A stretch of DNA of 61,520 bases, counting the filler. It is 7 parts of 7 records of this genome, joined end to end, with 100 filler letters (N's around TTAATTAATTAA, not from the genome) between each part and the next. Parts side by side here need not be neighbours in the genome. Positions count along the whole stretch, not along the records: positions 47,755 to 54,410 come from SRR2962707_5318; 6 more parts are not named here. One strand, 5' to 3'. The notes beneath the pieces are model-generated. The model worked only from the letters and a program-made list of their open reading frames with translations, was not told the DNA's origin and searched no databases. Below, in pieces: positions 7,721-57,500 of the stretch. Within the stretch, counting starts at the first letter, position 1, and every line of letters begins with the position of its first letter. A program made the position numbers and the translations under genes.

Positions 7721-7929
7721 NAATCACGACAAGTTTCTCTGACAACGCCCAGACAGTACCTCGGGGTATCCCGGCGGCGGTCCCTTTCGATCATCATCAC
7801 TCACTTCTGCCCTTGCAAAACCGGGGCCGTCCACACATGATAGCACCCTTGTGATGCGGCAAGGCGGTCTCGGCGCTTTGAAACATAGCTAACCAACACC
7901 GCCCCCGACAAAGCTCTTTTGAGTAAATA

Positions 7930-9447: not shown

Positions 9448-9504
9448 TAATTTTTCAAAATTCGCCCAAAGCCTGCCCTGTTCATAAAGGACAGATTGCT
9501 GCCA

Positions 9505-10863: not shown

Positions 10864-11465
10864 TGCTGCACGCCCTCATTTGTATTTAGCGGCCCATATA
10901 TCAACGTCGCGATGACCTTGATTAAACGTGAAACTCCGACCAGCAGCAGCAATGAAAAACCCAGACCTAGGCATCCTTTAATTGCCCATCGCGCTGACAA
11001 ACCATTCGCTGATGTGGACGTTTCGCCGGTTACCCAGGACAGATGAAAGAAACCCCATGAATGGTACAATACGAAACAAACGAAGGGTAAGAAGAGGACA
11101 AGAAGTCCAAACATTTCCAGCCAAAGCTGAATGCGTAAAGACAGGTTTTCGGAAACTACATCAACGCGCACATGTCCGTCCGCAATGAATGTATAAGACA
11201 AACCAATGAGCCAAGCTGCTGCGTAGATATACCATTGCAACTCTTCAAGCTCGATCATTCCTTGATTAAACGCGTAGCGCAAAACCACATTACCAATAAT
11301 CACAACCAAGAGAAACATCCACATCCAGCTTGCAATGGCACCAATTAGACCAACGAAGCCGTCAATCGCTTTGGTAAAACTGTTTTCTCTCATGCGGGGG
11401 ATATCATGATGCGCTGCGTCATCAACTGCATCTATAATGTTTTCAACATTCTCACTCTGGCTCAT
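10860..11465 (-). CDS. dctQ: TRAP transporter small permease
   Basis: Four TM segments, VVLRY, ELQWY, GHVRVD; 4-nt overlap with dctM. Confidence 0.93.
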   Translation of the reverse strand: MSQSENVENIIDAVDDAAHHDIPRMRENSFTKAIDGFVGLIGAIASWMWMFLLVVIIGNVVLRYAFNQGMIELEELQWYIYAAAWLIGLSYTFIADGHVRVDVVSENLSLRIQLWLEMFGLLVLFLPFVCFVLYHSWGFFHLSWVTGETSTSANGLSARWAIKGCLGLGFSLLLLVGVSRLIKVIATLIYGPLNTNEGVQQ

Positions 11466-15212: not shown

Positions 15213-15312
15213 NNNNNNNNNNNNNNNNNNNNNNNNNNNNNNNNNNNNNNNNNNNNTTAATTAATTAANNNNNNNNNNNNNNNNNNNNNNNNNNNNNNNN
15301 NNNNNNNNNNNN
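15213..15312. other. Artificial contig spacer
   Basis: N-run + TTAATTAATTAA + N-run. Confidence 0.99.
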
Positions 15313-23431: not shown

Positions 23432-23531
23432 NNNNNNNNNNNNNNNNNNNNNNNNNNNNNNNNNNNNNNNNNNNNTTAATTAATTAANNNNNNNNNNNNN
23501 NNNNNNNNNNNNNNNNNNNNNNNNNNNNNNN
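23432..23531. other. Artificial contig spacer
   Basis: N-run + TTAATTAATTAA + N-run. Confidence 0.99.
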
Positions 23532-23624: not shown

Positions 23625-24018
23625 TAAGTTTGTGTTCATTTTCACTTGACGAAAACTTTTCTTCGTCTAAAATCCTACCGATAACAATAATTAACATATG
23701 TTATTTGTTGCCAAGGAAGAGGCGATAATTTTCTTTTCGACATGCTATTAAAATAATTAAGTAGTACTGTAAAAGACCATCGTAAACTCCTCGGCTAACT
23801 TCAATTTCACATTATACATCAAATTATGCGGCATCAACTTCTCTATCGAGCTAGTGATTAGAGCCTGAGGTTCACAAGTATAATTTTAATAATCTATCTA
23901 AAAATTATAAGAGTCAGAAACAATATCTTAGGGCCGTATTAAACTATGGCTTTTTAATCACTAAAGGGAATGATTTAAACAGTTCCCCTTAATTGCATCC
24001 ATTTAAAAGGGGAATGAA

Positions 24019-31883: not shown

Positions 31884-31983
31884 NNNNNNNNNNNNNNNNN
31901 NNNNNNNNNNNNNNNNNNNNNNNNNNNTTAATTAATTAANNNNNNNNNNNNNNNNNNNNNNNNNNNNNNNNNNNNNNNNNNNN
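31884..31983. other. Artificial contig spacer
   Basis: N-run + TTAATTAATTAA + N-run. Confidence 0.99.
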
Positions 31984-36400: not shown

Positions 36401-39400
36401 CAAGATGGCGAATCGTTTAGTCTGATTTGGACGGCAACCGAACCTAATGGCTGCGCTTTCTGCACAACTGAATACCAGACAACTGGCGAATGCTGTGCTG
36501 AAATCATTGGAACTCACACGTTAAATGACATCAGTTGCGGGAAGGAGTTCAACTACTATTGCGAAACATACCCATTTGACGACGAATGCGACTACATTGC
36601 TGATGGCGTTTGTTACACGTATATGAAGGCCGACACGTCGATTGCCCTCGCACAAACAGCTTGTGAAGCAATGGGCGGAGATGTTGCGTACACCAATGAT
36701 CCAGATGTTTTGACAGAGTTAAACAGTGTGGTCCTCAAAACTTATGGGCACGACGCGACGTGGTGGCTTGGCATCAATGCGCAAGCTAACGACTGCGCTT
36801 GGGCGGCGCTGGATGGAAACCCGATCACACGCTACAATTGGAACTCGGGTGAGCCAAACGGCTGCAGCTCATGCGAAGGAGTGTTCATGGAAGATGGCGA
36901 GTGTTGTGCCCATGTGTACACTTCCGGTGCATGGAACGATGCAACCTGCGGCAACTCGTACACATACTTTTGTGAACGCACGTTTTTCGTCGAGGATGAC
37001 TTTTGCGAACCAGCTCCCAAGTCTTGCGATCTCTACCTTGATGGCATGTGCTACACACTGGTTCCCGAAAAAGCGACAATGGATGGTGCCGAGGCACACT
37101 GCGAAGCCATGGGAGGTCATGTTGCATACTCGGCTGACTCAAGTGTATTGGGCGCACTCAATGACTTTGCTGTGGCGGAAGGTGTCACGGGCACGTGGTG
37201 GCTCGGAATTGATGGAGAAGGAAATTGTGGATGGAATCCGCTTGACGGCCAGATGTATGCCTACTCGGCTTGGAAGTCTGGCGAGCCGAACGGTTGTTCA
37301 TCTTGCTCTGGATCTTTTCAAACATCGGGCGAGTGTTGCGCACACGTCTACACGACGGGTTTGTGGAACGACGTTACCTGTGGCAACAAATATGCATACT
37401 TTTGTTCGGTGAAGGTCTGCGATGCGGTCAAGGACTGTGACTATGTCGATGCAGATGGAACGTGCTATGTGTTTCACACGCAGCGGCATACTCTCCAAGA
37501 AGCAGAAGCCATTTGCAACGTAGAGGGTGGATCCGTTGCCCTGCCATCGTCGGAACAAGACTCTTTGTTGCTCAATGACGTGGCAGTTGATGACTACTCT
37601 GTCACCAGCACATGGTGGCTTGGAATCAATGCACGCAAGGCAGACTGTGGGTTTTACACGCTGAATAGCAATCAACAAGAATTTTCGTACGAAAATTGGA
37701 ACACCGGCGAGCCGAACGGATGTTCAAGCTGTTATGGTGCGTTTAACACTGCTGGCGAATGCTGTTCTCATGTGTACACCACCGGCACATGGAACGATAT
37801 TAGTTGTGGAGGGCAATATTCCTTCTTCTGCGAATACCCCGATGCTCTTGCTGCTGCGAGCTGTGATATTGAAGATGGTGACTTGTGCTATAAGTTTCGA
37901 AACGAACCGAAAACACTGCAAGAAGCCGTGGCCGATTGCCGCTCCATGAATGGAGTTGTAGCAACTCCTGCAGACAAAGGCGAATTGGCAACCCTGAACG
38001 CTGTTGTATCGTTCTTGAAGTACAACAAGACGTGGTGGCTCGGAATAAATGCGCGTGCCCAAGAGTGTGGCTTCACTGTGTTGGATGGCAGTGACCTGGC
38101 TTTTGCTAACTGGGCCAATGGGCAACCGTCCGGGTGCGACGAATGCGCCGGCGAATATAATACTGACGGCCAATGCTGTGCTCGGGTCAATGCCGACGAT
38201 ACATATGATGATGTTTCGTGCGGAAAAGAGCTTGCCTACTTTTGCGTCATTGACCAAGTTGCCACATCATGTGAGGATTCGTGCGGCGAAGTTTCACCCA
38301 GTGGGTTGTGTGGATGTGATTCTGCCTGCTACTCGCTCGGCGATTGTTGTCCTGATGTCAACCTTTACTGCGATTACGCCGACTCCTGCTATCTTCCTGA
38401 CGGAACACGAACAGACAGTTGCTGCTTCGACGGCATTTTGAATGGCCAAGAAACGGGCGTGGACTGTGGAGGCACTTGTGGCCAAGCGTGCGACGATTGC
38501 TTCTCGTGCGAAGTTTTGGACTGCTTTGGGGTGTGCTATTCAGCAGATGATGCAGCAAGTGCTGCGGTGAAGGATGACTGCGGTGTCTGTGGCGGTGATA
38601 GTACCTCCTGCATAGGCTGTATGGACACAAGCGCATGCAACTACAACAAGTACGCTCTCCTCAGCGACGAGGGAAATTGTACATATGTGGAAAATGAGTT
38701 GTATGACTGCTTCGGAAACTGTGCTGACCTCGATTGCCTCGGCGAATGTGGAGGAAATGCTGTCAAGGATGCCTGCGGGATATGCGAAGGTTACTCCAAC
38801 ACGTGCGACGGCTGTACCGATGAAGTTGCCTGCAACTTCGATGACTCGGCGTTTTTCGACGATGGTACGTGCACTTACCCGAAATCAAAAATCGTTGATT
38901 GCTTCGGCAACTGCTTAGTGGATCTTGATTGTGCCGGGAAATGTGGAGGAACCCTGGAAATTGATTCCTGCAATATTTGCGGTGGTTTGGATGAGTCTAT
39001 CGACTGCAACGGCTTGTGCAGCGGAACAGCCGAGGTCGACTTGTGCGGGGTTTGCGGGGGCGACACTTCGTCCTGCGTTGGCTGCATGAAGACTGGCGCC
39101 TGCAACTACGATAAGTCTGCAACATACAGCGATGGCTCATGTTTCTTTGCTGGAGACTTTGATTGCAACGGGTTGTGTCAAGTTGGCAAAGATTGCGATG
39201 GACTTTGTGGGGGCTGGAAAGTCGTTGATGAGTGTGGTGTTTGCGGAGGCTTTGGTGCTTCCTGCACAAACTGCACCGGAACGCTGGATTGTGCCGGCGA
39301 GTGCGATGGTTCTCACGTAGTTGATGACTGCGGCGTGTGCGGTAAGACCGGGTTTGACAATTGGGGCCTGAAAAACTGCGACACTTTGTGCTCTGATGCC

Positions 39401-42400
39401 GATTGCTTTGGCGTTTGTGGCGGCTCCGATGCAGTTGACTCTTGCGACGTTTGCAGCGGCAACGGCGCTACTTGCGCAACCGCTCCGTTTTGCGACGACA
39501 CAGGCGACGTTGTCGGTTGTGATGGGAAATGCAACAGTGGCCTTGACTACGATGCTTGCTCTGTTTGCGGTGGAGACAGTACGTCTTGTGCAGGTTGCTC
39601 TGACACCTCCGCGTGCAATTACGACGCAGACCGCCTACTTGATGATGATGACGTCTGCACGTTCTCTAAAACCAATTACAACTGCGCTGGCGTGTGCGCG
39701 GTAACGATTGACTGCGCTGGCAAGTGCGGTGGTTCTGCAAAAAAAGATAACTGTGGTGTTTGTGGTGGTGGTGGTGCTTCAATGGATTGTAATGGTCTAT
39801 GCAGCGGTAGCGCCGAAGAAGACGAGTGCGGAGTCTGTGACGGAACGGGAGCTTCTTGCACCGTGTACGGTTGCACAGACTCAAGCGCCTGCAATTTTGA
39901 TGCAGACGCTGAAAAGCTCGATGACAGCTGTTGGTATGCAGTAGATGAATATGGACCGAATACAGATTGCTTTGGCAATTGCGACAGCAGTCTCGATTGC
40001 GCCGGAGTTTGTGGAGGCTCTGCAGTGAAAGACATTTGCGGCGTTTGCGCTGGTAATAGCGCCAATGTCGATTGTGCTGGAAACTGTTTTGGAACCGCTG
40101 AGACTGATGCGTGTGATGTTTGTGGCGGAGACAGTTCAGCATGCGTCGACTGCTCAACTGCAGACTGTGCTGGGGTGTGCGACGGAACGCACGTTTGGGA
40201 CGAGTCCTGCACGCCGGCTGTGTGTGTTGATTCAAGCAGCTCGGCAAAAGACTGCCTTGGCGTTTGTTTTGGCAAAGCAAAAGAGGATATCTGCGGGGTT
40301 TGCGAAGGAGATACGTCCACGTGTATCGGATGCTTGGACACCAGTGCATGCAACTACAACGTCAACATGACCACGCAGGGAGGCTTCCCGACCGATGCAG
40401 ACGATGACCTTGTTTTTTACGTGGATGCGTGGGGAGCAACTGGCATGCCTGCAATTGGGGATATTTGGCCCAACATTGCCAAACCTAATTTAGGCAAATT
40501 TATGAAATGGACCCAGGTTAATGGCGAGGATATTGGCACGCTGGTCGTCCAGGAAGAACCTGGGGCTGACTCATACGTGACTTTGGGTGATTTTACCTTC
40601 GGCAAGATTGGCGATGGAGTTGACAACGTGGATTTTGCATACATGGTGTCTGATGTGACATCATTCCCAACGGGTGATAGCGCCTTTACTTGGGAATTTG
40701 CGTATGCGCATGGCATGAGTTCGGGCGAGACGGAGTACCTGTTTTCGTACGGAAATGGTTACGCAGGCAAAGATAACAGTGTGTACATATCAAACACAAG
40801 CTATCTATGCCACTCGTTTGGATGCTCAGACGTAAGTACGGTGCTATCTACTTCTGCTTTGGCCGTCAATGTGTGGGTTGTGACGTACGATGCGGCTTCA
40901 ACGCTTGAATTTTATCTTAATGGCCAACTGGTGGACACAGTGTCGACTTATGCAACGTGGGATGTAACTCATCTTGACGGCAAACAGTTCGTGATTGGGG
41001 GTGGAACAACAGACGTCACTAATGCCTGCCGCCGATCGTTTACAGGAGCACTGTACTATGTCCGCTTGTATGCAGAATACATGGATGAGGATACTGTTGC
41101 GGCACATTATTTAATGAGTGATTCGAGCGGCGACTTTAAGTACAGACAATCTCCACCTTGTGTGTACAAGTTTCCAACCCAGAGTTGCGCTGGGCGGTGT
41201 GCCGATGACGTTGAGCAAGACTGTGCGGGCGTTTGCGGCGGCTCGACTCGTGTTGATGGATGTGGAGTATGCGGCGGGGATGCTTTTACGTGCAGTGGCT
41301 GCACCAACCGCAAGGCTTGCAACTACGATAAGAATGCCATTGTAAGGGACGACACCCTTTGCACATTCCCGGAAACCAACTATGACTGTTTCGGTGCCTG
41401 CATCGCAGTGGACTGTTTCGGAATTTGCGGAGGATATGCGGTGGTCGATGAATGCGACGTTTGCAATGGATGGGGAGCGACGTGTTCAGAAGCGGAGTTT
41501 TGCCTGGATGGGACTGTTGATTGCGCTGGTGAATGTGACGGCAGTCACGTCAACGACGCATGCAAGGTGTGCGGCGGCGACAGCAGCGCGTGCAATTCCG
41601 ACTGCAAGAAATGGGATTGTTTTGGTGTGTGCGGTGGAAGCGCAGTAGTCGACGATTGCGGTGTTTGTGGTGGAAGTAGTGCAAGCTGCACGTTCCCATT
41701 TTGCCCTGACGGATCGGTGGACTGTGCGGGCGTTTGCGAGGGAAGCGCGGTCTTTGATGATTGTGAAGTGTGCGGAGGAGACAGTTTGAGTTGTGTGTAT
41801 CCGTACTGTGGCGATGGAACCGACGCGGACTGCTTTGGCTACTGTGGTGGATCCGCAGTTGAAGATGCTTGTGGTGTTTGTGACGGTGGAAGCCAAAGTT
41901 GTGGAGGCTGCATGGTGCCAACAGCGTGCGACTTTGATCCGGATGCTGACTTACAAGCTTCGTACCTTGTCGAAGAAACCTGCGAGGGTGACTTTGAAAG
42001 TTTTGGGGTGTGCTACACATTCCACCCCGAAGCTCGGAACGGAGCACAAGCTCAAGCCACTTGCGAAAGCCTTGGAGGAAATCTTGCTTATCCAAGCCGG
42101 GCCAAGCTCCAAGCTACTCTATTGGCCATTGCAGTCGATACGTACGGAGCGCAGGACTACTGGATTGGTCTATTTGATCGTGCTAAGTGTGCTTTTGAAG
42201 CCGCGAATATGGCCCCAGTTGTGTATACAAACTGGGCATCGAATTCACCAGGAGGCTGCAGTAAGTGTGCCAAGCGATTTCAATTGACACAACAGTGTTG
42301 CACTGTGGTGGACTCAGGTGGCGAGTGGGACGACGCCTCTTGCGAAGAGGAACGTCCATTTTTCTGCGAGAGAGGCCCTCGTGCTTTCTATTGCGATTAC

Positions 42401-45400
42401 CCAGAGCTTGGGCGAGATTGTAATGACAACTGCATCTGGGACTTTGACTGTGCTGGCACGTGTGGAGGATCAGCAGTGGAAGACAGCTGCGGTATTTGTG
42501 GAGGATCTGGTGTTTGCCCTGATTGTGACTTTGATTGCTTCGGCGAATGCGACGGTACAGCATACGCTGATGTATGCGGTATTTGCAACGGTGCTGGCGC
42601 GTCTTTAGACTGCAAAGGTTTATGTGGGGGCTCCACATTTTTTGATGCTTGTGGCGTTTGTGCGGGCGACAGCAGCGGTTGTTCGGGTTGCATGGATTCT
42701 TCCGCGTGCAATTTCGATGATACTGCCGTCGTTGATGATGAATCATGCACTTGGCCAATAAACGACGATACTGACTGCTTTGGAAACTGCATTGGCAACT
42801 ACGATTGCGACGGTGTATGTGGAGGAGGCGCAGTTCTTGACAACTGTGACGTTTGCGATGGAAAAGATAAATCTCTTGCTTGTGATGGCACTTGTTTTGG
42901 ATCGCTGAAAAATGATGCGTGTGGTGTATGCGGAGGGGATAGCAGTGACTGCACCGCGTGCACAAACACTGACGCTTGCAACTACGATGCGGATGCCATT
43001 ATCAACGATGACGATCTGTGCTCATACCCGCTGTCTGAAAACCACGACTGTTTTGACAACTGTCTTGGCGAAGTGGACTGTGACAATGAGTGCATGGGGT
43101 CTGCCAGTCTTGATGCATGTGATGTATGCGGCGGAGATTCGTCCAGTTGTGTGGGATGCATGGACTCTGCGGCGTGCAACTACGACAAGACAGCCACTTT
43201 GTCCAGCAACGCTTGCACATTTGCAAAGAAAAACTACAATTGCAAAGGCGTGTGCACAACAACCAAGGACTGCAAAGGCGTTTGTGGGGGTGTTTCGGCC
43301 GTGGACTCGTGCAATGTATGTGGCGGGTATGGTGCTTCGTGTGCGATAGACTTTTGCGCCACAGGAACTATCGATTGCGACGGGGAATGCGACGGCAGCG
43401 CAGTGGAGGACAGTTGCGGTGTTTGCGGAGGGGACAGTAGTGCATGCTCAGGCTGTGTTGACACAAGTGCATGCAACTTTGACAAGAGCGCTTCGGTATC
43501 GTCCGATACTTGCAGCTATGAGAACACCTTGTTCGACTGCGCTGGTGAATGCAAAGTTGATGTTGATTGTAAGAGTGTGTGCGGAGGTTCAAAAGCAATC
43601 GACTCCTGCGATATTTGCGGAGGAAACGGCGCAACTTGCGCCGAGGCTTTTTGTGCCGATGGTGTCATTGACTGCGATGGCTTTTGCGACGGTGGGCGTG
43701 TCGAAGACGACTGCGGTGTTTGTGACGGCGATTCCAGCACATGTTTGGGCTGCATGAGCAACGCTGCTTGCAACTACGATAAAAACGCTTTGATTCCAAA
43801 TTTCGCTTGCACGTACGCAGCCACCGGCTACAATTGTGCTGGGGTGTGCGTTGCTGGCCTTGATTGTGATGGTGCGTGTGGTGGAACCGCCGTAATTGAC
43901 GAATGCGATGTATGCGGTGGATTTGGGAGCTCTTGCGCAGAAGAGTTCTGTAGTGATGGAATCGTCGATTGCGCAGGTGAATGCGATGGGCCGAAAATGG
44001 TTGATGCATGTGGTGTTTGTGGAGGAGAGTCATCAATATGTACAGGTTGTCGCATCTCCTACGCGTGTAACTTTGATGACCAAGCAACGATTGCTGACAA
44101 CGACCTGTGCACTTTTCCTCCATCTGCTGGGGAAGCGTCAGAAGACTGTTACGGCAACTGCATTTGGAATCTTCAAACTCAAGAGAAGCTCGATGCATAC
44201 CACAGCGCTGACTTCACTCATAGCCCACCGAATGGATATGTGCCAGGCGACTGGAACGCTAGCGTCTTCACAACATGGTATCGCGACTGTGCTGGTACTT
44301 GCCGTGGAACGGCAGCAATTGACTCGTGCGATGTATGCGGCGGAAACGGCGCTACCTGCGCGACTGACTTTTGCAATAATGGCACTGTCGATTGCGCCGG
44401 AGTCTGCGACGGTGGGGCAGAATACGATACATGCGATGTCTGTGGCGGGAGTGGAACTGCATGTAATTGCTTATCAGGCAAATACGACTGTGATGGGCGC
44501 TGCGACGGTGATAGTGTCATTGATGAGTGCGGTGTGTGTGGTGGGTACGGCGCTTCATGCTACGCAGGCTTTTGTAAAACCGGCACTGTTGACTGCGCTG
44601 GTGAATGCGACGGAGGCGCGTCGGTTGATGTTTGCCAAGTCTGTGGAGGCACGGTTTCGGAGGCGAGTGATTGTAATTCAACATACTTCTGTATTGACTT
44701 CGACTCTGATGGTTCGTCGTATCATGATTGTTGGGGAGTTTGCTACGGCAATGCAACGACAGATAACTGCGGTGTTTGCGACGGTGATGGAAACACATGC
44801 AAATTTTGTGGAAATGTTGTGGATTGCAACAGCGTCTGTGGTGGCACTGCTGTCATTGACGTTTGCGGAGTATGCGACGGTGGGGTTTCAATGACTATGC
44901 TTGGCCAAGGAAATTGCACGGACTATTATTGTGATGATGTCGATTGCAGTGGTGAGTGTGGTGGTTCTGCACTCGTCGACACGTGCAACGTTTGCGGTGG
45001 TGACGGAAGCACGTGCATCTACTGCCCTGAAACTGTTGATTGCAAGGGTACTTGTGGTGGAACCGTCGAGGAGGATGCCTGCGGTGTCTGTGGTGGTTCG
45101 GTGGCTGACGAGGTCGATTGTGATTCCTATTCGTGCTCCAGTACGCTGGACTGCAACGGCGAATGTGATGGTTCAGCACTTGTCGACGATTGTGGAGTAT
45201 GCAATGGTGACACTGCATCATGCACCGTGGAGGCGTTTTGCGCAAGCGGTACAATTGATTGCGACGGTCAATGCAATGGTTCACACGAGGAAGATGCATG
45301 TGGTGTTTGCGGAGGGTCGGCAAGCTCCGACCTTGGCTGCAGCTTTGACTGCTGCTCATTTTTCGTGTTGGCTAATGACCATACTTTTGGCGATTCGGCT

Positions 45401-47654
45401 CTTGGAAAGTACTTTCACGTGAGTGCCGCTTCGATTGAAGCTTGCGTCGGCTACAGCACAGACTGGCACAATGATAACGGCTACCAGATTCTTTTGTACC
45501 GTGACGATGCGTTGGCATGGCAAGGGTCAGTTATTTTGTGGGACGGCGCTAACGGGGGAAGCTCTGGAGACGCACACGGCCGCAAAAGCAGCGGAGCTGC
45601 AGTTGGTGATTGGAAAATCGGGGATGAAATTATTCTTGTTGATTTCCCATCCGGAGATGAAATAAAGGCAATTGACTGCCAAGGTACTTGCAACGAAGTT
45701 TCTTACGATGAATGTGGTGTTTGCGGTGGCAACGGTAACACTTGCGTGCAGACTGCTTGTCCGTCTGACGAGTACGACTGCGCTGGAACGTGTGATGGCT
45801 CCGAAATCTTCGATGCCTGTGGCATCTGCTCAGGAAACTCCATCAATTGTCCCGCGCCTTTTTGTTTAGGCGGAACAGTCGATTGCGAGGGCGTCTGTGA
45901 CGGAGGCAAAGACTACGATTCATGCGAAGTGTGTGGAGGCTACGGTGCAACATGTGCCGAAGACTTCTGCGCAAATGGTGTCGTGGATTGCAAAGGCGAA
46001 TGTGATGGAACTGTGGAAGTGGATGAGTGCAGTGTGTGTGGAGGGGACTCCTCTCAATGTCTCGATTGTGATTCGTTTGATTGCTTTGGAGAATGCGACG
46101 GAACTGCGGTAATCGATGAGTGTGGTGTGTGCAACGGGTACGGCAGCAGCTGCACTCAGGACTTTTGCGTCAATGGTTCTGTTGACTGTGCTGGCGAGTG
46201 CGATGGCTCACACACAGAAGATCTTTGTGGCACTTGCGATGGTAGTGCTACCAAGGTTGCTCATTGTCTATGCACTGTCGGAAAGATTGATTGTGCAGGC
46301 GAGTGCCAAGGGTCTGCTGTGGAAGACTCGTGCGGTATCTGTGGTGGCAATGGAGCCACTTGCGCTGTGGCATTTTGCGCCGGCAAAAAGGTTGACTGTG
46401 CTGGCGTGTGCAGTGGAACAAGCGTTTTCGATGCCTGTGATGTATGTGCTGGCGATGGGAGCACATGCTGCGACGATGCCGACCTTGATTGTGCTGGCGA
46501 GTGTTTGGGTGGGCTTGAGTATGATGGATGTGGAGTCTGTGGGGGCGACTCAGAGACGTGCAACGGGGCATACTGCTCCAACGGGAAGGTAGACTGTGCT
46601 GGAGCATGTGACGGCTCGGCAGTCAAAGACCAATGCGGTGTTTGTAAAGGCGACAGCACGTCGTGCCTCTGCAATGAAGTTGACTGTGAGGGTACTTGCA
46701 ACGGCGAGGCAGTTCTTGACTCGTGTGATGTATGTGATGGAAATGGAGCAAGCTGCGTCGACGGCGAGTTCTGCCCGGAAGGCACCATCGATTGCGAGGG
46801 TACATGTGATGGGTCTGCTGACTATGACGAGTGCAATATCTGCGGCGGATCCGGTGACGTCACGACGTGCACGGGGTGCAAAAACACAGACGCTTGCAAC
46901 TACTACCCTGGAGCATTTATCGTGCATGAAGTGTGCGTCTACAAGGAGGATGGCTATAAGTGTAATGGTCAATGCGTAAAGTACGACTGCAACGGACTAT
47001 GCGGGGGCTCGGCGGTTCTCGACACCTGTGACGTGTGTGGAGGCAATGGACTGTCTTGCTCGCCAAAAAAGGTCAATCCATGCCCAGCTGGCTTTGACTG
47101 CGAGGGTACATGTGGAGGCTCATTAGAAAACGATTCCTGCGACGTGTGTGGGGGAAACGGCGCCTCGTGCGTAGAAGGACCTTTCTGCGAAGATGGCACA
47201 ATTGATTGTGCAGGATTTTGTGACGGAAGCGCCCTTAAAGACGCTTGTGGGGTGTGCGGTGGCGATGGTTCAACATGTTGCCTAAACGATGTTGATTGCG
47301 CTGGAAAATGTGGCGGAAAAGCGTATGTTGACTCCTGCAATGTGTGTGGCGGGTATGGGTCATCATGCCAGGCTAGCGAAGATTGTGCAGGAAAGAAGGG
47401 CGGGTCAAAGATTTTCGATTCTTGTGATGTGTGCGGTGGCAACGGCGCATCATGTGCCGAGGAAGAGTTTTGTGCTGATGGAACAGTGGACTGTGCCGGA
47501 AAGTGCGATGGTAGCAGCAGCGTTGATGCTTGCAGTGTGTGCGGCGGGGACAGTTCCACATGCTGCTTGAACGATGTTGACTGTAAAGGAAAATGTGGCG
47601 GCAGTGCAGCGGTTGACTCTTGCAATGTGTGCGGCGGCAACGGAGCCACCTGTG
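33444..47654 (+). CDS. Giant secreted Cys-rich repeat protein with 6 C-type lectin, somatomedin-B-like and LamG-like domains (3' truncated)
   Basis: Signal peptide [19 protein letters not shown]. One frame-preserving GT-AG intron at 33761-33858, then a 13.8-kb open exon. Dozens of DCxGxCxG...DxCxVCGG and GCxDxxACN(Y/F) repeats. CTLDs with WLG, EPN and WND motifs. Confidence 0.9.
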
Positions 47655-47754
47655 NNNNNNNNNNNNNNNNNNNNNNNNNNNNNNNNNNNNNNNNNNNNTT
47701 AATTAATTAANNNNNNNNNNNNNNNNNNNNNNNNNNNNNNNNNNNNNNNNNNNN
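47655..47754. other. Artificial contig spacer
   Basis: N-run + TTAATTAATTAA + N-run. Confidence 0.99.
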
Positions 47755-47784
47755 TCGTTCTTTCGTTCTTTCGTTCTTTCGTTC
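47755..47784. repeat. (TCGTTCTT)n simple repeat at contig start
   Basis: Tandem 8-nt units seen directly. Confidence 0.85.
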
Positions 47785-47925
47785 CTTCTTTCTTCTCGAA
47801 GTCGGCGTTTTCTGTTGAACCGCAGGCCGGGAGAATGGGCAGCGAGGGCGTTGTGGCCGCCTGCCTTTGAGAGAACTGCACACACTGCGTAGCACTTCAC
47901 AGCCCTGCAGGACCTTCCTCTCGCC

Positions 47926-50900
47926 ATGCCTTCGTCAAACGCACGCGGAAGGCGAGAGTCGAAGCGACCAGGTGGAGACATCTTGAACCACTCTGGCAGT
48001 GACGCAGAGGCATCCTCACGTTGCACCAAAAAAGAACTCTTCCGATACTTGCCGTTGATATTCATTGTCCTGGTGATCTCCAACGTGTACCTCGTGTACC
48101 ACCGCGGTCTGTTGGCCAGTGTTGACCCGCACAGACGCGGGCCTCCAGGTCGGCGCACACTCGACCAGCAGATTCAAGAACTGCTGGCGGACGATCCCGC
48201 GCAGGCGGTTGACTCTCCCAACGTTCACCCGTACCACAAGGCCGCCATTCATGATCATATGTCGGCGGACCACCTTGCAGAAAAGCAAAGGCAAGACGCC
48301 AACAGTGAGGCATCGCCTCCGAAAAGGCGACCGATCTTGGCGCCAAATCCCATTCATGACCCCGTGGCAGAGCGCGTTGCAGGTGGCAATGATGCCGCCA
48401 GCGACGAAGACAACAAGATTGATTTCCGGGCTCGTGGCGATGGAGAGCTCAAGAAGGACAGGGCTGTTGGTGCTTTCAGTGTTCATGGTGCACCATACTG
48501 TTTGGACACACTCCAACATCGTGAAGGGCAGAAGCCGGGCACCTACGCTTGTCATGGCCAAGGCGGATCACAAAATTGGGCTCACCAGATTGACGGAACC
48601 ATCAGCAACCCAGCTTCGGGCCTATGCCTTGGTACAAAGGGTACTGACACGGCCTTGAACACACTTGTGCTCCTGTCATGTACGGACCCAAACACGGCCG
48701 TGCGAATGCACTGGCAGAGGGTGGTGGTACCTTCCGATCATAACTCCGCGCAATTCCGACTGATTGGCTCAGGAGAGGTCGCCGTTACTCAACAAGGCGG
48801 TCTTTGTTTGACAAAAGATGGTGCAGAAGTTGTGCTCAGCCTTTGTGACTTCACAGCTGGAACCATTTCTCACGAAAGGCAGCGGTGGCAAATTGACACT
48901 GCCGAAAGCTATGCCCAGCGCAAACGCGACGCTCAAAAACACATGCAGAGGTTTGACTTCAACGAAGAGGCAAGCCGAGAAATCGGAATCCGTCGAGAGC
49001 GGCCGGACTTGCGCCATGCCAACTGCAAAAACCGCGACTTTGGTACGCGTCTTGGCTTAAAGCTCAAGCCAACAGCTGTAATTTTCTGCTTCGTCAATGA
49101 AGAATGGTGCGTGCCCGCTTGTGCTGCGCAACAGTGGGCAGGCTGCAACCGTCAGCTGGCGATCTGCTTGCCTCAAAATTCTCACCACGCGACAGCTGTC
49201 AAACTGTGCTTGCCATTTCTGTCCTCTGCCCAGTCTGACGCGCTGCTGTGCTGACCCATCTAGGTATGCCCTCCTTCGTAGTGTGCACAGTGTCATTGAT
49301 GGTTCACCGCCAGAGCTTTTGCAGGAAATCATCCTTGTCGATGATGGCAGTGATGCAGAGTGGCTACAACAGCCGTTGGAAGACTATATTCGTGACCATC
49401 TCCCACCATTCGTGCGTCTCGTACGGCATGGAGCACGGCTTGGACTTATCCGTGCTCGATTGACGGGAGCTCGCGAGGCGAAAGCACCGATTTTGACTTT
49501 TCTTGACTCACACATTGAAGTCAACGAAGGCTGGTTGCCTCCTTTGCTGGAACGTGTGACGGCCGACCCTAAAGTTGCTGCTTGTCCCATCATCACGGTC
49601 ATCGGGCAGGAGTTTTTGGAGCATCAAACGTCCATTGATCATGTAAACACAGCCTATGGTGTTTTTGATTGGGCCCTAACGTTTCGTTGGGCATACTCTC
49701 GCACGAACCCTCCAGTCGGCGCAAGAAGAACGGACTTGGCGGATCCCATCAAGTCACCGACGATGGCGGGGGGTCTATTCACAATCGATCGGCAGTGGTT
49801 CTGGGACAGCGGTAGCTATGACGATCAGATGGAAGGCTGGGGTGGAGAAAACATTGAAATGTCCTTCCGCTTGTGGCAGTGCGGTGGGAGCATTGAAATT
49901 GTTCCCTGCTCGGTGGTCGGACATATTTTTCGCAAGAAGAATCCGTCCCCGTTTAAGAAGAACGTCATTTTTATTCTCCGCCACAACCTAAAGCGCCTGG
50001 CAGCGGTGTGGATGGATGAGTACGCCGAATTGTTTTACTCAATGAACCCCGGGGCGCGAAACGAGCCCACGGGCAACATATCTAGCAGACTTGCCGTCCG
50101 CGAGACCTGCAAATCGTTTAAGTGGTACCTGGACAACGTCTATCCTTCACTGTCGGCGCCACTTCCTGGAACGGTGCGAGGTAAGGGTGCTTTCCGCACC
50201 GCCGATGGTGCGCACTGCCTTGACTTCCAGAGTGGCAGCCCGAACGCAGGAGGGGCTTTGATCGCACCCGCGTGTTCCAGCAACCGCCAGCAGCAACAGG
50301 TCCAGCACCTGGAAACGTATGTCTATCAAAACCGCTTGCTGAGCTTGAGTTGGAAAACCTGGTTTGTTCTTGATTGGATAGTCTTTCTTCTCCTTTGTAT
50401 AATTTTTGCACACAACTGTGCTCCAAACCAATTTGAACAGGTATCAAATCACAGGCACCGCCTGGCCTGCGTCAGTCCTTTGTATTGAAACACGTGGCGA
50501 AGGCGTGCGTCCGCTTTGGGCACCGTGTGACCGGGATTCCGAAAAACAACGTTGGGAACTGGACGAGCAAAATTCTGAATCTGGCTCACTTGTGCGCTTG
50601 CAATCAGATCGCAATCAATGCCTTGGCCTGAAATCTAAGTCTCAAGTGTGGGTCCTGCAGTGCAACGACCCGGCCGTGCAGAAATGGCTATTCGACGACA
50701 ACAGTTGGGGAGGGCGTCGCAATGCCCCGAGTGGATCGCGACCAGCTAATGAGCGCATTCGTATCCAGTCCGCAGAGGATCGGGTGAAGAAAGACGAGGC
50801 TCTTGTGGTGGTTCCCAAAAGTGTCCGGGCAGTGGGGACAGCGTATGTCGCTTTGTCGCGAGAGAGTCTCGCATGCGCAGAAGGGGCTCATGTGGATTGG

Positions 50901-52938
50901 CCGTTAGGCTCAGAGGGCTCTGAAGTCGCTGCATCTCTGCAAGAATGTGCAGAGGCATGTGAGAGCGCAAAAAATTGCGACAGCTTCTCGCGGTCTGTGG
51001 ACATCGGCGATTGCTGGCTGAAGAACTCCGGTGGGCGACTCTGTGGTGTCGCCAAGCCTGGACTACCAAAATCTGCTGGAGCCGCCGCAGTGTCCATTGT
51101 GTCAGAGAGCAACGCTGCTCTTTTCAGTCCGAAGGGGTGCAGGCCCAAGCCGGGATATGTTTCATACACGCGAACGCTATGTCGAAGCTCAGCAGGGCGG
51201 GTGCTGAATCTCGCGCAGAGGGTTGAGCAAAAGGAAGCTGGCGTTGTCACTTTACCATACACTGGATCACGATTTCATGGCGCGCTGGGTCTTGATAAGG
51301 AAACCGGTGAGCCTCTGTGGGTTCCAAAGTGAGTGTTTGACATTTGTAGCCTTGTTTTTTTCTGCACAATTTCGTCTCTTGCTGCTTCCTTGACCTGGTT
51401 TCCAAATTGCGCGTAGACCGGTACCATCACACGCAGAGCAGCGCACGCTTAACTCACAGCACGGGTTTAACGCCTCGCTGAGCCAGAGCTTGCCTCTTGA
51501 CCGAGACGTTCGCAGTAAAGCCGGGGCACAATGCGCTGCCATCGACTACGGTGATCTGTCAAAGCTACCAGACACCAGCGTTGTGTTTGTGTTTTGCAAT
51601 GAAGAGCAAAGTGTCCTGCTTCGGTCCGTGCACTCAGTGCTTAACCGTTCACCCCCGCAGCTGCTAAAAGAAATCATCCTGGTTGATGATGGCAGTGACG
51701 CTCCTCATTTGGGGGCGCCATTACAAGAGTACGTGGACGCACTTGGTCCCAAGGTGCGTCTCATTCGGCAAGGTAGCCGCACAGGTCTGGTCCAAGCCCG
51801 CCTTGCCGGCATGCGTGCCGCGACTGCCGAGACTGTAACGGTTCTCGACAGCCACATTGAGGTTCAAGAGCGCTGGCTTGAACCGTTGATGTCACGGATG
51901 CGCGGCGACGAGACACGAGTGGTGATCCCAATTATTGATGGAATGAATGCTAAAACTTTTCACGACGACGCGGGAGGCATTCAGCTGTGTGGATTCCTTT
52001 GGAGCATGGTAGAGCATGGCATCCCACTGCAGCGCAAGGACGCTGCTGCCAACCATAATCGGTGCTGTGATCCACAGCCCAGCCCAGTTATGGCTGGGGG
52101 GTTGTTTTCCATCAATCGGCACTGGTTCCTGGACACCCTTGGGGGTTACGATACTGGGATATCGTTTTGGGGGACAGAAAATCTCGAGATGAGTTTCCGT
52201 GTTTGGATGTGTGGCGGGACGCTTGAGATGATGCCGTGCTCTCGCGTGTACCATATTTTCCGCACGATGGGCGGCAAGCCATACCACGTCCCGGGCAACA
52301 CAGGCACTGTGAACAAACTGCGTACCATCCACGGGTGGCTCGGACCAAAGTATGCCAAATACGCACTTTCCCAGCTTGGCACACATGCATTGGATGCAGA
52401 CTATGGCGACATGACAGAAGTGCGGGCTGTTCAGGATCGACTTCAGTGCAAAGATTTTGACTGGTTCATGCACAATGTCTACCCCGATAACGTGCTGATT
52501 CGAGACCTCGAGCACGCGCCCTTTCACGGTCAAATTCGGTTGTCATCGAATGGCCTCAACTCCGACGGTGATCGTTGCCTATCCGTCGCCTCCCGTTCGA
52601 AGTTCATGCTAGCTCCATGCGCATCAAAAGACACGGCCATCTACGCATCACAAGAATTTTTCCTGGCTGCAAGCGGACAACTTCGGCTGGCTTCGAAACT
52701 TGACTCATGTCTTGAATACAGTTCTGCACGAGGTACCATCTCAATGCCAGAATGTGGATCTGCTGGAACGTCTCGCCGTGCAAACACCAATCAGTTGTGG
52801 CAGTTTTCGCTGGCCGATGGCGTTTTAAAACATAGAGGAAGCAATCTCTGTGTGTCTGGCTCACAAAATGCTTTGATGGAAGCGTGCGACAGCCCGGGAG
52901 TAGTGAACTCAAATTTTCAGTGGGACGCAATTGAATGA
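47926..52938 (+). CDS. Polypeptide N-acetylgalactosaminyltransferase (GT27) with two catalytic domains, 4 exons, predicted 1547 aa
   Basis: Type II TM anchor. Exons 47926-49106, 49264-50316, 50441-51328 and 51417-52938 join in frame via GT-AG introns. Two sets of EIILVDDGS / DSHIE / MAGGLF / WGxENxE / HIFR plus ricin domains. Confidence 0.85.
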
Positions 52939-53121
52939 GAATTTGCACCAACTACTACACATTAAATCAGGAGCTTTTCATTCAGGCAGCAAAATATCTT
53001 GACGAAGCCAAGCTCCCGACCAGCACTGTTTTCGAGTTGTAAAGTTTAAAAAAAAACAGAAATCACCTTCGCACATCGGCAGCCGGTGTGGTCGATGCGT
53101 TCCTGTGTCGCCGCGTTCCTT

Positions 53122-54306
53122 TCACCCAACTTTCTTTGTGATCGCAGCAATGCGTTCATCAACAGCTGAAATGTTTCCAAGGACTGTCTCAATATTCTCA
53201 GAAATGCTTTTTTGCACGTTCGACAACGCCTTTTCGTCTGCTTGCAGCATCTTTTGCAAACCGTCCTGCATGGTCTCTAAACTGAACAGGCGCTGAGAGA
53301 AAAGAGCACTCTCTTCGTGCAGTGTCTTGAGGGTTTGCATACGCCCAATCAGCGTGGGGATTGTATCAGCGACGGGAGCCCACTGTTGCACGGTGGAGAA
53401 CAGCTTGTCTACACGCTCACGAAGAATGTCCTCTCCCAATTCCACGCGCCCACCCTTTATACCGGCGGCTTGGGCAGTAAAGTTCTCAAACTCTTTGTTC
53501 AGCAACTCCATCTTTTGCTGCAATCGAGCCAGTGTTTTGGGATCGAGCAAACGAACGCGGTCTTCAAGCTTCGTAATCACAGCCGAGAGCGGGGCCGGCT
53601 GGCCTGCTGCTCCAAGGGTGTCGAGCGATTTTAAGCCCACAACCTGCTCCAGCTCGTACAGTCGATTCTCCAGTGCATTGAGCGAGCTGTGAGCAGCTTC
53701 TTTCTGAAGAGCTTTGTTGAAGAATAGTTCATATGTGATGCCGCCAGCACCGGCCTCTTTGCCTGTCTTGCCCGAAGAACCACCGCCACCAGCTTCGCCG
53801 TCACCGGCTTGCAGCTCCTTGATCTTCTGCAATAGTTGCTGAGAAGCAATAGTCGACTGGCCGTCAAACGTCGGCGCCAAAAAGGATTGAAACGCTTGTG
53901 TTTTGCCGAGCTGTTCAAGCTGCGTTTGCAGCACTCGCGCCCCAGCCGAGAGCTCCGTAGCCTCCTGCGCCTTGATCACAGTGAAAATATCCTTGGACTG
54001 GGTGTCCTGGCTTGCAAGCCCTTCCAGCTCCGTGCGCAAGTCTGCCAGCTCGGCCTGCAAGCGGTTGTACTTCGAAAGCGGATCCTCCGGAGCAGCTTCT
54101 TGCGGCCCCTGCCGCGCGTTGAGAGCATGAGTGCGATGGAAAAAGCGGCTTCGATCTTCGTCTTCATCAAGAGCATCCCGCTGAAACTTGAGGAAAGCCT
54201 CCCGCGCTGGGACCGTCGACGAGTCCAGGGTAGAGTTGTCCGTGTGCACTTCAGTGGGCTTCTTGGCGTTGAAGACCTGTCCGAGGGCTGCGGGTTCTTC
54301 GACATC
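53122..54306 (-). CDS. DCTN2: Dynactin subunit 2 (dynamitin, p50), last exon; 5' end missing
   Basis: KYNRLQAELADL, YEL, LENRLYELEQVVG, PTLIGRMQTLKTLH coiled-coil pattern; TTGCAG acceptor before 54306. Confidence 0.8.
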   Translation of the reverse strand, partial: DVEEPAALGQVFNAKKPTEVHTDNSTLDSSTVPAREAFLKFQRDALDEDEDRSRFFHRTHALNARQGPQEAAPEDPLSKYNRLQAELADLRTELEGLASQDTQSKDIFTVIKAQEATELSAGARVLQTQLEQLGKTQAFQSFLAPTFDGQSTIASQQLLQKIKELQAGDGEAGGGGSSGKTGKEAGAGGITYELFFNKALQKEAAHSSLNALENRLYELEQVVGLKSLDTLGAAGQPAPLSAVITKLEDRVRLLDPKTLARLQQKMELLNKEFENFTAQAAGIKGGRVELGEDILRERVDKLFSTVQQWAPVADTIPTLIGRMQTLKTLHEESALFSQRLFSLETMQDGLQKMLQADEKALSNVQKSISENIETVLGNISAVDERIAAITKKVG

Positions 54307-54385
54307 CTGCAACAGGCACAGCACAGACACGGCACACGGTGGTGAACATCGATAGATACACGCATACGCACACCCGACCGCATAG

Positions 54386-54410
54386 ACACACACACACACA
54401 CACACACACA
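54386..54410. repeat. (CA)n microsatellite at contig end
   Basis: Seen directly. Confidence 0.95.
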
Positions 54411-54510
54411 NNNNNNNNNNNNNNNNNNNNNNNNNNNNNNNNNNNNNNNNNNNNTTAATTAATTAANNNNNNNNNNNNNNNNNNNNNNNNNNNNNNNNNN
54501 NNNNNNNNNN
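54411..54510. other. Artificial contig spacer
   Basis: N-run + TTAATTAATTAA + N-run. Confidence 0.99.
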
Positions 54511-54540: not shown

Positions 54541-54583
54541 AATAAAGCACTTTTTCCAATCTGGAATTGGTTCAATCGGCACA

Positions 54584-57500
54584 ATGGACTTTCTGCAACG
54601 AAGAAGTCCACAGAGGTCCACTTCTTGCTTTGCGGTGGCCATCATGCTTGGTTTGGGTGTTGGCAGAGTTGAAGGCAAGTTCGCAGCAGAGAATGGGCTC
54701 ACACTCAAGGTGTATGACAACATGGCTCTCTTTGGGCAGCCGGTTTTGACTGAAGTCGTGGATGCAGCCTCGATCGTACTTCCTGGCTCGCAACACAACG
54801 GTGCATGGAGTGCAGAGTTGCTCGGGACTGTTGACTTCCCGGGTGGGTTTGTGGACGGGGGTCTGTACGAGTTCAACTGCAACTTCTTCAACACTACATT
54901 GGGCTTCGTTTGGGTCGATGGGCACCTCGTTTGCCAGGACGGCAACGCCTACACGAACAGTGACGATGAGATTGACAACCCACTACCCATTAACATGTTC
55001 CACGACTCCCTTCTGGGGCCAACAGACTCACTTCCCTTTCGTGTACACGTTTACTACAATGCCAACGCCAGTGTCGGTGTCGATCCGAATTCGGTTGCAA
55101 GCGCGGGGGTGTTCAATGACACTGGTCATCACTGTGGGTTTGAACAGCGTGGGCAAATGGAAAGTAATGACTGGTTTTCGGCAGCGCAAGTATGTGCAAA
55201 CAGTGGCTTTTCAGTTGCCGGTGCTGAAGCCAGCCATGGCGAGCAGGTATGGTGTGGCAACACCGTCTCACCGAACTGCTCATCCTTGGACAAATATCCT
55301 CATTTGAAACCCTGCCCCGGAAATGCATCCCAAACATGCGGTGACGCATGGGTTCTTGAAACTATCTCGTTTCGCACAAGAGATGAGCCAACGGCGCCAG
55401 CTTCATATGTTGGAGTTTCGGTTGCCTGGTCAACTCAGCATTCAGTATCCGCCGTGCCAATCCCCACCAGACAGCTTTCCCCGACCCTCCCTGTGCCCGA
55501 AGCCACGCGCGATTCTATGCAACGGTCTCTTGCATCCGGTTGGGGACCTTGGCTCCACAATAATATGCTGTCGATCGTAAAGCTCCCTGAGGCAGCATCC
55601 ATAACCACCGAATTGTGTCATATCCCCACTGGAAAATGCTTGACTGTCGCTCGGCCCGATGGATCAACCCAGGGGCAAGGAATGCCTGATGTGCGAGTTG
55701 GATTGCATGCATTCGACCGATCCTATGTGCAGTTTTTTTTCGGTTCGTCGACTTTCCCGAAAGTGAATGTGTCGGTCGAATATTCAGTGAGTGGCACAAA
55801 TTCCTCAGAGCTTGACCTGTTGGTGACGCCAATATCTTGTGGTGATCTTCCACCCAACAACGAGAGTTGCCATGATTTTGAAATTCGAACCGCTAGCAGC
55901 TACTTTTGGTTCAAGGCTGGCAAGGTATGACGAGTTCTGATGGACTGTGCAGATGGAAATGAACTAGTTATTGCCCTTTGTTAAGAATTTTGGCAATTGT
56001 TTCTTGCAGGTTACCACGAAAGCTGCTAGTCTTGAGTTTGCTTCACCAGGGTTTGGGTCAATCTCAATTTTCGGGTCGGCTAATACGACCTCCACTGCTT
56101 CTACTGGCAGTACCCCTGCTGCACTCCATCAGTCCCTGTCGGGTGGACCTGTCGCGCTGTCAACTGCCATGAGTCCAGTTCCAAGCGAGGTGAAAGGCAA
56201 GCTACTGGCGGCTGCAGAGGTAGAGACTGCTCTTTTGCGCGATACTTTTGGCGCAAACCGTATGAGAGAAGGACAGGCTGTTAAGGCAGCGGCAATGTGG
56301 ACTCTTGTGTCAACCCCTATTGAAAATGCAGGGGCCCCTTTGCACCCTGTTTCGCGTTCTTGGAATTTTGCTCACGTCAAAAGGGATGATTTTTCTTACG
56401 CCAAGTTTGACTGGGACAACTTGTTTGCGAGTTTGATCGCCGCATGTGGTGCGCAGCGGCCTCAATCTCATGCGCAACAAGCAGGCGCGAATCCAATTAC
56501 AGTCACAAGTTCTTCCCCTGTTCGTGGGTTTGGTTTTGCCATTAGCAATTTGATACAGATTATCAAATCGAAAGTTGCAGCTGGATTTGTGCCAAACTTT
56601 GCTGCTGGCGGTGCCAAAAGTCAAGATCGAAGTGAGCCTCCGGTTGGGGCAAAGGTTTGTCGAAATACACGTTGATATTGTTTGGACGATCAACAGGCAT
56701 ACTGGAATTCAATCATGCTCTGATTATTTCTGCGTGTAGGTCACTCAGCAGCTAGTTGAAAAGTTCGGAACCGACACTATGCAATGGGTCGTGGAAGTGG
56801 TATTTGACGATTTGGTGGACTGGTCGGACTGGTTTATCCGCAAACGTTTACACCCAACTTTAAATCTTGTCGCACTTGGCTCGTATAATGACCAAACTGC
56901 TCAAGCAGGCAACATGCAAGGTGCACGTTTCGAAAGTGGGCTGGACAACAGTCCAATGTATGACGAAGAGGTTCGCGAATGATATCATGACGCACGTTGC
57001 ATTGGTTGAAGTTTTGTCACATAACATCGTTCTGTGTTGATTGAACACTGCGCAGTTTTTCAATGCCACGAATGGGTGCTCTTCGACAGAGTCAGGGTGC
57101 GGGCTCATGGGACTATATGACGTAGGTTTCTCATCGATGTTTGTCCAAGAGTGCTATGCCCTGGTAAGTTGCCTGCCTCGGAAATAACGCGGTGAGAATT
57201 TGAATTTTGTCTTTCTTGGTTTCAAGCTCTGACAAGTTTGTCATGTGCAGGCAAATCTCTCTTTGTTGATTGGTCGACCAGCATCATTGACAAATGCTCT
57301 GCGTGAGCGTGGTGATGATATGGCAAAATTGATCCGTAATCATTTGTGGAGTGAATCAGACGGCATTTTTGTCAACAAATTTTCAGCAAATGGAACGTTT
57401 TACCCTCGGATTACGCCGACATCATTCTATGCCCTGCAAGCTCTGGCTGCGAATGATACCCAAGCCGACCTCATGGCAACAAGGTGGCTTATGAATGCTT

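Follow-up and report, generated by a model that had tools for sequence, protein, structure and literature searches.

A predicted membrane-anchored protein that combines two polypeptide GalNAc-transferase units from different GT27 subfamilies

The DNA analysed here (the window, 61,520 bases in seven joined pieces) contains, in the piece taken from SRR2962707_5318, a plus-strand gene for a predicted protein of 1547 amino acids (aa) with two units of glycosyltransferase family GT27, the polypeptide N-acetylgalactosamine (GalNAc) transferases. We propose with moderate confidence that this single gene encodes a type II membrane protein of the Golgi type, in which two complete and probably active GT27 units would serve as an initiator and then a follower of O-glycosylation. 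The domains are arranged in the order transmembrane segment, ricin domain R1, GT27 unit 1, ricin domain R2, a probable PAN/apple domain, GT27 unit 2 and ricin domain R3 (Table 1). To our knowledge, the characterised GT27 enzymes all have one catalytic unit, whereas this polypeptide has two that are near-complete (aa 332-706 and 1045-1416). The fusion is real, conserved and undescribed, yet neither unique nor categorically new.

Table 1. Positions of the predicted gene, its domains and motifs, and other features of the window.
Feature	Position	Strand	Details
Exon 1	47926-49106	+	cytoplasmic tail of 37-40 aa, signal-anchor transmembrane segment, stem, R1, first ~60 aa of unit 1
Intron 1	49107-49263	+	157 nt, GTGCGT..AG, phase 2
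Exon 2	49264-50316	+	unit 1 core and R2 alpha repeat
Intron 2	50317-50440	+	124 nt, GTATGT..AG, phase 2
Exon 3	50441-51328	+	R2 beta and gamma repeats, PAN/apple, linker, first ~20-28 conserved residues of unit 2
Intron 3	51329-51416	+	88 nt, GTGAGT..AG, phase 2, GC content 0.43; junction fusing both enzymes
Exon 4	51417-52938	+	remainder of unit 2, R3, TGA stop
Membrane anchor, type II	48037-48117	+	aa ~38-64; only 19-aa windows with a Kyte-Doolittle mean >1.6 in 1547 aa
R1	48484-48900	+	aa ~187-325, upstream of unit 1; Pfam Ricin_B_lectin 55.5 bits
Unit 1	48919-50200	+	aa 332-706, intron 1 inside; GT27 profile envelope, Pfam and PDB match
Unit 1, DSH	49505-49513	+	aa 475
Unit 1, WGGENIE	49838-49858	+	aa 586
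Unit 1, HIFR		+	aa 614
R2	50207-50702	+	aa ~709-832, intron 2 inside; C-terminal lectin of unit 1
PAN/apple-like Cys domain	50871-51041	+	aa ~889-945
Unit 2	51243-52542	+	homology from aa ~1013, profile envelope aa 1045-1416, intron 3 inside
Unit 2, DSH	51847-51855	+	aa 1185
Unit 2, Glu-His	52012-52017	+	aa 1240-1241
Unit 2, WGTENLE	52168-52188	+	aa 1292
Unit 2, HIFR		+	aa 1320
R3	52567-52935	+	aa ~1425-1547; Pfam 35.1 bits
Dynamitin (dynactin subunit 2) gene	53125-54306	-	Pfam 203.6 bits
ABC transporter	56-2710	+	bacterial piece
Aldehyde dehydrogenase	7930-9504	-	bacterial piece
TRAP transporter DctM	9505-10875	-	bacterial piece
Spacers	7622-7721, 15213-15312, 23432-23531, 31884-31983, 47655-47754, 54411-54510

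The gene is assembled from four open reading frame (ORF) fragments (47893-49254, 49082-50488, 50403-51332 and 51394-52938), which are joined into a coding sequence of 4644 nt that corresponds to 1547 codons plus a stop codon and contains no internal stop codons. The start codon at position 47926 is the first ATG downstream of an in-frame stop codon at positions 47890-47892. The lengths of all three introns equal 1 modulo 3 and each intron contains stop codons in at least two of the three frames, which rules out read-through of any of them into the next exon. The GC content at third codon positions is 0.556 in each half of the coding sequence. A separate start for unit 2 was also ruled out, since no in-frame ATG precedes residue 140 of the exon-4 ORF (position 51811 of the window), which is located within the catalytic GT-A fold. 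No hydrophobic segment was identified in the exon-4 ORF in a Kyte-Doolittle analysis of the whole 1547-aa protein; the sole hydrophobic stretch is the one near the N-terminus. Judged by hydropathy, the protein would have the short tail, single N-terminal anchor and stem of a type II topology, with no anchor belonging to unit 2. A preliminary description of this DNA had proposed the same structure of four fragments, three phase-2 introns and 4644 nt, in which the second unit has neither a transmembrane segment nor an ATG start of its own; all of its coordinates were correct, and the position of the first ATG and the hydropathy profile agree with the latter claim.

That description had also claimed a single polypeptide, for which we obtained comparative evidence across all three junctions. 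A close relative, the database protein P0369 (1019 aa), is 86% identical over exon 2 and collinear with exon 1, and its unbroken ORF runs without gaps over junctions 1 and 2, where it shares the split Trp codon (junction 1) and the split Thr codon (junction 2). The proteins P0003 and P0005 are likewise free of gaps at junction 1 and have the same split Trp codon. Each of these two proteins (P0003, 1322 aa with its own N-terminal transmembrane segment; P0005, 1211 aa) aligns to the spliced protein as one high-scoring segment pair with about 41% identity, which covers both units and the linker and has no gaps at the junctions. At junction 3, where the two enzymes are fused, five database ORFs are continuous (P0003, P0005, P0004, P0307 and P0019). 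Moreover, 12 of 13 single-unit GalNAc-transferases align from aa 1013-1023 onwards. This start precedes the junction (aa 1041) by 18-28 residues, so that exons 3 and 4 each encode a part of the conserved lead-in to unit 2. The comparison supports the predicted join of these two exons.

The order of the domains was recovered by Pfam searches and by the positions of the catalytic motifs, in agreement with the order and with the DSH, WGxENxE and HIFR motifs given for both units in the preliminary description. Exon 1 matched a ricin domain, exon 2 Glycos_transf_2 and Glyco_transf_7C, exon 3 ricin and PAN domains, and exon 4 Glycos_transf_2, Glyco_transf_7C and ricin. The scores of units 1 and 2 were 87 and 97.5 bits for Glycos_transf_2 and 36.1 and 30.1 bits for Glyco_transf_7C, respectively. 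DSH, WGxENxE, the manganese-binding His and the Arg that follows in the HIFR motif are intact in both units.

All three ricin domains contain three C-L-x...Q-x-W sub-repeats, and their sugar-binding sites were compared with the GalNAc-site residues of human T2 (PMC4432651). In the alpha repeat of R1, the Asp, Tyr and His of the site are kept while Asn is replaced by Ser, whereas only the Asp is kept in the alpha site of R2, and the sugar-site Asp is found in none of the three repeats of R3. The part of R2 encoded in exon 3 scored only 26 bits as compared to the Pfam cutoff of 29, because R2 is split by intron 2; the orthologous protein P0369 has three ricin stretches that together score 89.4 bits.

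Between R2 and unit 2, the preliminary description had noted a small Cys domain, which is present and is probably a PAN/apple domain. It scored 22.7 bits with PAN_1 (PF00024, cutoff 21.4) and 22.9 bits with PAN_4 (PF14295, cutoff 27). The homologous region scored 33.3 bits with PAN_4 in P0005, and 35.7 bits with PAN_4 and 25.3 bits with PAN_1 in P0385. All seven matches of this region in the PDB were weak, with a best E-value of 0.043, and each was to an apple domain, from either Toxoplasma MIC4 or factor XI. An AlphaFold2 model of the exon-3 product, based on an alignment of 8 rows, was too poor to use (mean predicted local distance difference test score, pLDDT, 44.2; predicted template modelling score, pTM, 0.37); residues 133-195 of that model form a helix-plus-strands arrangement that is compatible with a PAN domain but is no proof of it. 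The linker from R2 to unit 2 spans about 200 aa, was modelled at low confidence and contains one dibasic site, at aa 837.

The trees place the two units in different GT27 subfamilies that diverged anciently. Units 1 and 2 are 39.9% identical over 371 aa, and their nucleotide sequences match in only one stretch of 55 nt, at 80% identity. The best match of unit 1 in the PDB was mouse GalNAc-T1 (1xhb, 2.8e-91, 310 bits) and its lowest was Toxoplasma GalNAc-T3 (216 bits), which was the best match of unit 2 (8uhv, 1.9e-95, 324 bits). For the phylogenetic analysis, 501 near-complete units were taken from 467 proteins with a GT27 hidden Markov model of our own, and 76 units were selected by hand, namely all units from non-animal multi-unit proteins, a few animal units and named single-unit enzymes. 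The more careful tree contained 69 rows, with the second units of P0019 and P0374 and the Prorocentrum sequence left out for their long branches, along with four units of Anopheles christyi P0001.

In this 69-row tree, unit 1 belongs to a clade of 11 rows with a support of 100/100, which joins a T13-like enzyme from Salpingoeca at 97/91. Unit 2 belongs to a clade of 6 rows (99/75) that is nested in a T3 clade of 32 rows (100/99), which also includes the apicomplexan T3 orthologues from Neospora, Hammondia and Eimeria as well as chromerid and choanoflagellate enzymes. A topology with the two units as sisters was rejected by the approximately unbiased (AU) test, with a difference in log-likelihood of 230 and p = 7.1e-74, for a group that was named only after the tree had been seen. 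The AU test and the nucleotide divergence together rule out a recent tandem or assembly duplication; for an assembly duplication, this had been anticipated in the preliminary description from the divergence of the units. The branching order is congruent in the two clades, in that the protein studied here and its close relative are placed beside P0004, and P0003 is placed with P0005. This pattern fits one old fusion followed by vertical inheritance.

The enzyme with which unit 2 can best be compared is Toxoplasma gondii GalNAc-T3 (TgGalNAc-T3). In Toxoplasma, T2 initiates and T3 then acts at sites with a GalNAc at the +1 position (PMC11074326). According to the same structural report, the active site of T3 contains Glu332, the pocket for the +1 GalNAc is formed by His333, Ser334 and the lectin residue Glu554, with Ser334 contacting the sugar through its main chain, and a second metal is bound by His333 and Glu336 (PMC11074326). 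The T3 lectin has no Asp-His-Asn site, and a C-terminal tail (Tyr617-Val628) is packed on the catalytic domain and stabilises it; the activity or stability of the enzyme needs both the tail and the second-metal ligand Glu336 (PMC11074326). Unit 2 shares with this enzyme the DSH, WGTENLE and C-S-R-V-Y-H-I-F-R motifs and has equivalents of both Glu332 and His333, while the position of Ser334 is occupied by Gly. R3, like the T3 lectin, is without the classical Asp-His-Asn site, and an acidic residue, the Asp at codon 52702-52704, aligns with Glu554, in an alignment that is less certain for the lectin than for the catalytic domain. Unlike T3, unit 2 lacks a separate anchor and follows another GT27 unit in the same polypeptide.

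The structural report describes the Glu-His signature as restricted to apicomplexan homologues (PMC11074326). We found the pair also in the second units of P0003, P0004, P0005 and P0019 and in P0263 and P0264. It was further identified in homologs from Salpingoeca (P0268), Monosiga (P0269), Vitrella (P0127) and Cryptosporidium (P0135) and in the protein P0277 from the EukProt set INCI, which include choanoflagellate, chromerid and other enzymes from outside the Apicomplexa. In total, 88 of the 501 collected units contain the pair, choanoflagellate units included; this is a count of rows with the pair, which lies in insert columns for most rows, rather than a clean table of presence and absence. 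The Glu336 position is Pro or Ala in P0268, P0269, P0127, P0135 and P0277, with Pro in the Vitrella, Cryptosporidium and choanoflagellate homologs, and the second metal site thus looks restricted to coccidian T3.

Taken as a whole, the protein would be held in the Golgi membrane by its one N-terminal segment. Unit 1, aided by R1, would most likely place the first GalNAc on Ser or Thr of unmodified mucin-like substrates, and unit 2 would most likely add GalNAc beside residues that are already glycosylated, which would mirror the hierarchy of T2 and then T3 in Toxoplasma. The shared anchor would keep the initiating and the filling-in activities together at a ratio of 1:1, with the PAN/apple module between them. 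The analysis shows how the gene is built, the order of its domains, the intactness of its motifs, the subfamily of each unit and the conservation of the fusion, whereas the location in the Golgi, the activity of the units, their donor sugar and the order in which they act are inferred. An enzyme that initiates and then follows up had been suggested in the preliminary description, and this idea has gained from the position of unit 2 in the T3 clade, its equivalents of Glu332 and His333 and the T1/T13-like character of unit 1, but has lost from the absence of Glu336 and the tail.

Several observations count against this division of roles or against a single product. The placement of unit 1 among the 'initiating' enzymes has moderate support, with PDB scores for T1, pgant9, T4, T10 and T2 that are close to each other (310-284 bits), and acceptor preference as read from sequence is not reliable. 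In unit 2, the second-metal ligand Glu336 of T3 is replaced by Pro and the C-terminal tail is absent, with 4 residues after the last Q-x-W as compared to about 22 in the T3 orthologues of Hammondia and Neospora. The second units of P0019 (aa 869-1271) and P0374 (aa 713-1070) have lost catalytic motifs, with E-P-H instead of D-S-H and no WGxEN in P0019, and no DxH in P0374; a second active site is therefore not always needed, and these second units are possible pseudo-enzyme domains. Finally, the P0369 ORF of the close relative stops exactly at the end of exon 3, and the downstream ORF, P0263, has an in-frame ATG located 16-17 codons upstream of the position equivalent to the acceptor, so that the two, judging by the ORFs, may be separately expressed in that organism. 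These ORF boundaries, and the TGA at positions 51330-51332 that directly continues the frame of exon 3, are what would be expected if the gene model were an artefact, with a first gene that ends at this TGA and exon 4 as a separate downstream gene or transcript. We consider this very improbable, as the TGA belongs to the donor consensus of intron 3 and arises because the phase-2 GTGAGT donor itself generates it, exon 4 has no anchor, no signal and no ATG before the one inside the fold, and both the homology to single-unit enzymes and five independent ORFs run through junction 3. The extra residues at the N-terminus of P0263 do not form an anchor.

If the polypeptide is one, both of its units may be active but act side by side, with different substrates or sites for each, and with the fusion providing no more than a shared anchor and location. 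Both units are intact, unit 2 is without two T3-specific features, and homotypic doubles and triples exist, in Chromera (P0007), P0368, a tardigrade (P0008) and Anopheles (P0014), with units that are mutually closest, which shows that fusion can arise without a division of labour. We nevertheless regard parallel action as rather unlikely, since two anciently separate subfamilies have been joined here, they have stayed paired and the two units show congruent branching, and unit 2 keeps the Glu-His pair of the sole characterised member of its clade, a strict follow-on enzyme. Less likely still is that one unit is a non-catalytic pseudo-enzyme that binds the substrate or has a regulatory role, as the degenerate second units of P0019 and P0374 might suggest, or that cleavage of the long linker with its dibasic site frees unit 2 into the lumen as a soluble enzyme. 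All catalytic motifs that were checked are intact in both units of the protein studied here as well as in both units of P0003, P0004 and P0005, and there is no evidence for cleavage. An initiator followed by a follower, both catalytic and on one anchor, is the reading that we prefer.

We examined the distribution of fused and separate units in a protein collection that is skewed to long proteins. In this collection, 26 of 469 database proteins have at least two near-complete GT27 units, of which 18 carry animal names and 8, Chromera among them, do not. Among the best 150 representatives of a library clustered at 50% identity, 12 have at least two matched stretches, and 7 of these 12 are long enough (at least 987 aa) for two units. 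The fusion of a T1-like with a T3-like unit is shared by at least four other proteins in the databases (P0003, P0004, P0005 and P0019), and by orthology by the close relative (P0369 plus P0263). It is probably also carried by P0101, which is truncated, while P0201 and P0374 have a first unit of the unit-1 type and then a partial or divergent second unit. The preliminary description had asked for a search for two GT27 domains in one protein, and the architecture is indeed already present in public protein sets, in proteins that are all uncharacterised; no published description of two GT27 units in one protein was found in a full-text search, which covered few subscription journals. In the transcriptome-derived EukProt set INCI, each type has an ORF to itself and its own N-terminal anchor (unit-1 type P0384, 809 aa; unit-2 type P0277, 616 aa). 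Their separation in INCI and fusion here provides Rosetta-stone support for a functional link.

Other proteins with multiple GT27 units, such as Chromera velia P0007 (1488 aa), P0368, Anopheles P0011-P0017 (about 1020-1090 aa) and the tardigrade protein P0008, also have at least two near-complete units plus ricin domains. In the tree of the 76 selected units, P0007, P0368, P0373, P0008, Trichostrongylus P0009, Anopheles P0014 and P0001 and Polypedilum P0018 each have units that group with one another as sisters or near-sisters. For P0007, P0368, P0008, P0014 and P0001, this points to tandem duplication within a lineage or to gene models that were merged. Unlike these homotypic proteins, the protein studied here and its relatives join two old subfamilies. 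P0368 (1703 aa) has three near-complete GT27 units, mutually closest, and three ricin stretches in one ORF. Among P0011-P0017 (Anopheles), P0001, P0002 and P0370, predicted two-unit proteins of 950-1091 aa come from seven Anopheles species records, and some models reach four or five units; in both of those placed in the tree, P0014 and the four-unit P0001, the units are sisters. These proteins may be either true fusions or merged tandem genes. A unit-2-type ORF of 483 aa (P0334) is 52% identical to unit 2, and the exon-4 ORF of the window is itself present in the collection as P0121; the source genome probably has at least one more T3-type paralog (P0334).

As for the origin of the fusion, a tentative scenario is that a deep group of protists hard-wired dense mucin-type O-glycosylation in two steps, through a single fusion of a T1/T13-like with a T3-like unit that was then inherited together, with the two kept as separate genes in at least one relative. 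If so, the initiator/follower hierarchy of Toxoplasma and animals would predate the Apicomplexa, and GT27 would be native to many protist lineages rather than acquired from animal hosts. The data suggest that glycosylation of the 'start, then fill in' kind is older and more widespread than the enzymes studied in animals and parasites show. According to a review from 2021, no polypeptide GalNAc-transferases occur in protists outside the Apicomplexa, and the enzymes were probably gained by lateral transfer (PMC8724618). Our homolog lists and trees contain both T3-type and T1-type GT27 proteins from chromerids, choanoflagellates and other eukaryotes, and the T3-type clade with its chromerid and choanoflagellate members bears on this claim of absence and lateral transfer. 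The cooperation of isoenzymes on dense arrays of O-GalNAc has so far been worked out only with mixtures of separate enzymes, and a conserved fusion of an initiator-type with a follower-type unit offers a natural test bed for such cooperation among GT27 isoenzymes.

The seven pieces of the window are unrelated and do not represent one locus. Between them lie spacers made of TTAATTAATTAA with 44 N on either side, and the pieces differ in composition (GC content 0.34-0.62) and in gene content, with bacterial genes in some and eukaryotic genes in others. The GT27 gene is located entirely within the piece at positions 47755-54410, and this piece alone is therefore its context. Here, the gene for dynamitin and the GT27 gene are convergent, and their stop codons lie only about 185 nt apart. 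The first exon of the dynamitin gene is located beyond the end of the piece, and a TG/CA-rich simple repeat (54307-54410) is found upstream of its acceptor. The weak match of this protein to vertebrate dynactin-2 (94 bits) fits a non-animal eukaryote, and a protist is a plausible source of the GT27 gene.

The genes identified in the other pieces include those for an ABC transporter, an aldehyde dehydrogenase and the TRAP transporter DctM, all in bacterial pieces (Table 1). In an AT-rich piece with a GC content of about 0.38, an open frame of 2382 codons at positions 24007-31155 on the plus strand encodes leucine-rich repeats and a PKD-like domain. A single open frame of more than 4600 codons at positions 33830-47654, also on the plus strand, is built of dozens of Cys-rich modules, with at least five C-type lectin domains within its first 1600 residues (141.9 bits); it is incomplete, as it extends into the spacer. 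The piece that follows the one with the GT27 gene contains a plus-strand open frame of 462 codons at positions 54542-55930, which has a weak match to a WSC domain (25.2 bits, below the cutoff of 27.8).

Among the named enzymes, unit 1 is most similar to the animal T1/T13 and Drosophila pgant5 types, with 48-51% identity to insect T5-type enzymes and to the Salpingoeca T13-like enzyme. It shares with the T1/T13 type the WGGENxE motif, aromatic or basic residues at the position of the T3 Glu-His pair and a C-terminal ricin domain. It differs from that type by the additional ricin domain upstream, by the loss of most sugar-site residues in R2, and by the PAN domain and second enzyme that follow R2.

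Glycosyltransferases with two activities include LARGE1, EXT1/2 and the chondroitin synthases. Another example is PgtA from Dictyostelium, Toxoplasma and Pythium, in which a GT2 and a GT74 domain carry out successive steps on one chain (PMC8724618). The protein described here likewise has two catalytic domains in one polypeptide that would act successively on the same acceptor. However, those enzymes join domains from different CAZy families that transfer different sugars, whereas both units in this protein belong to GT27 and would presumably transfer the same sugar, with the difference between them being the state of the acceptor.

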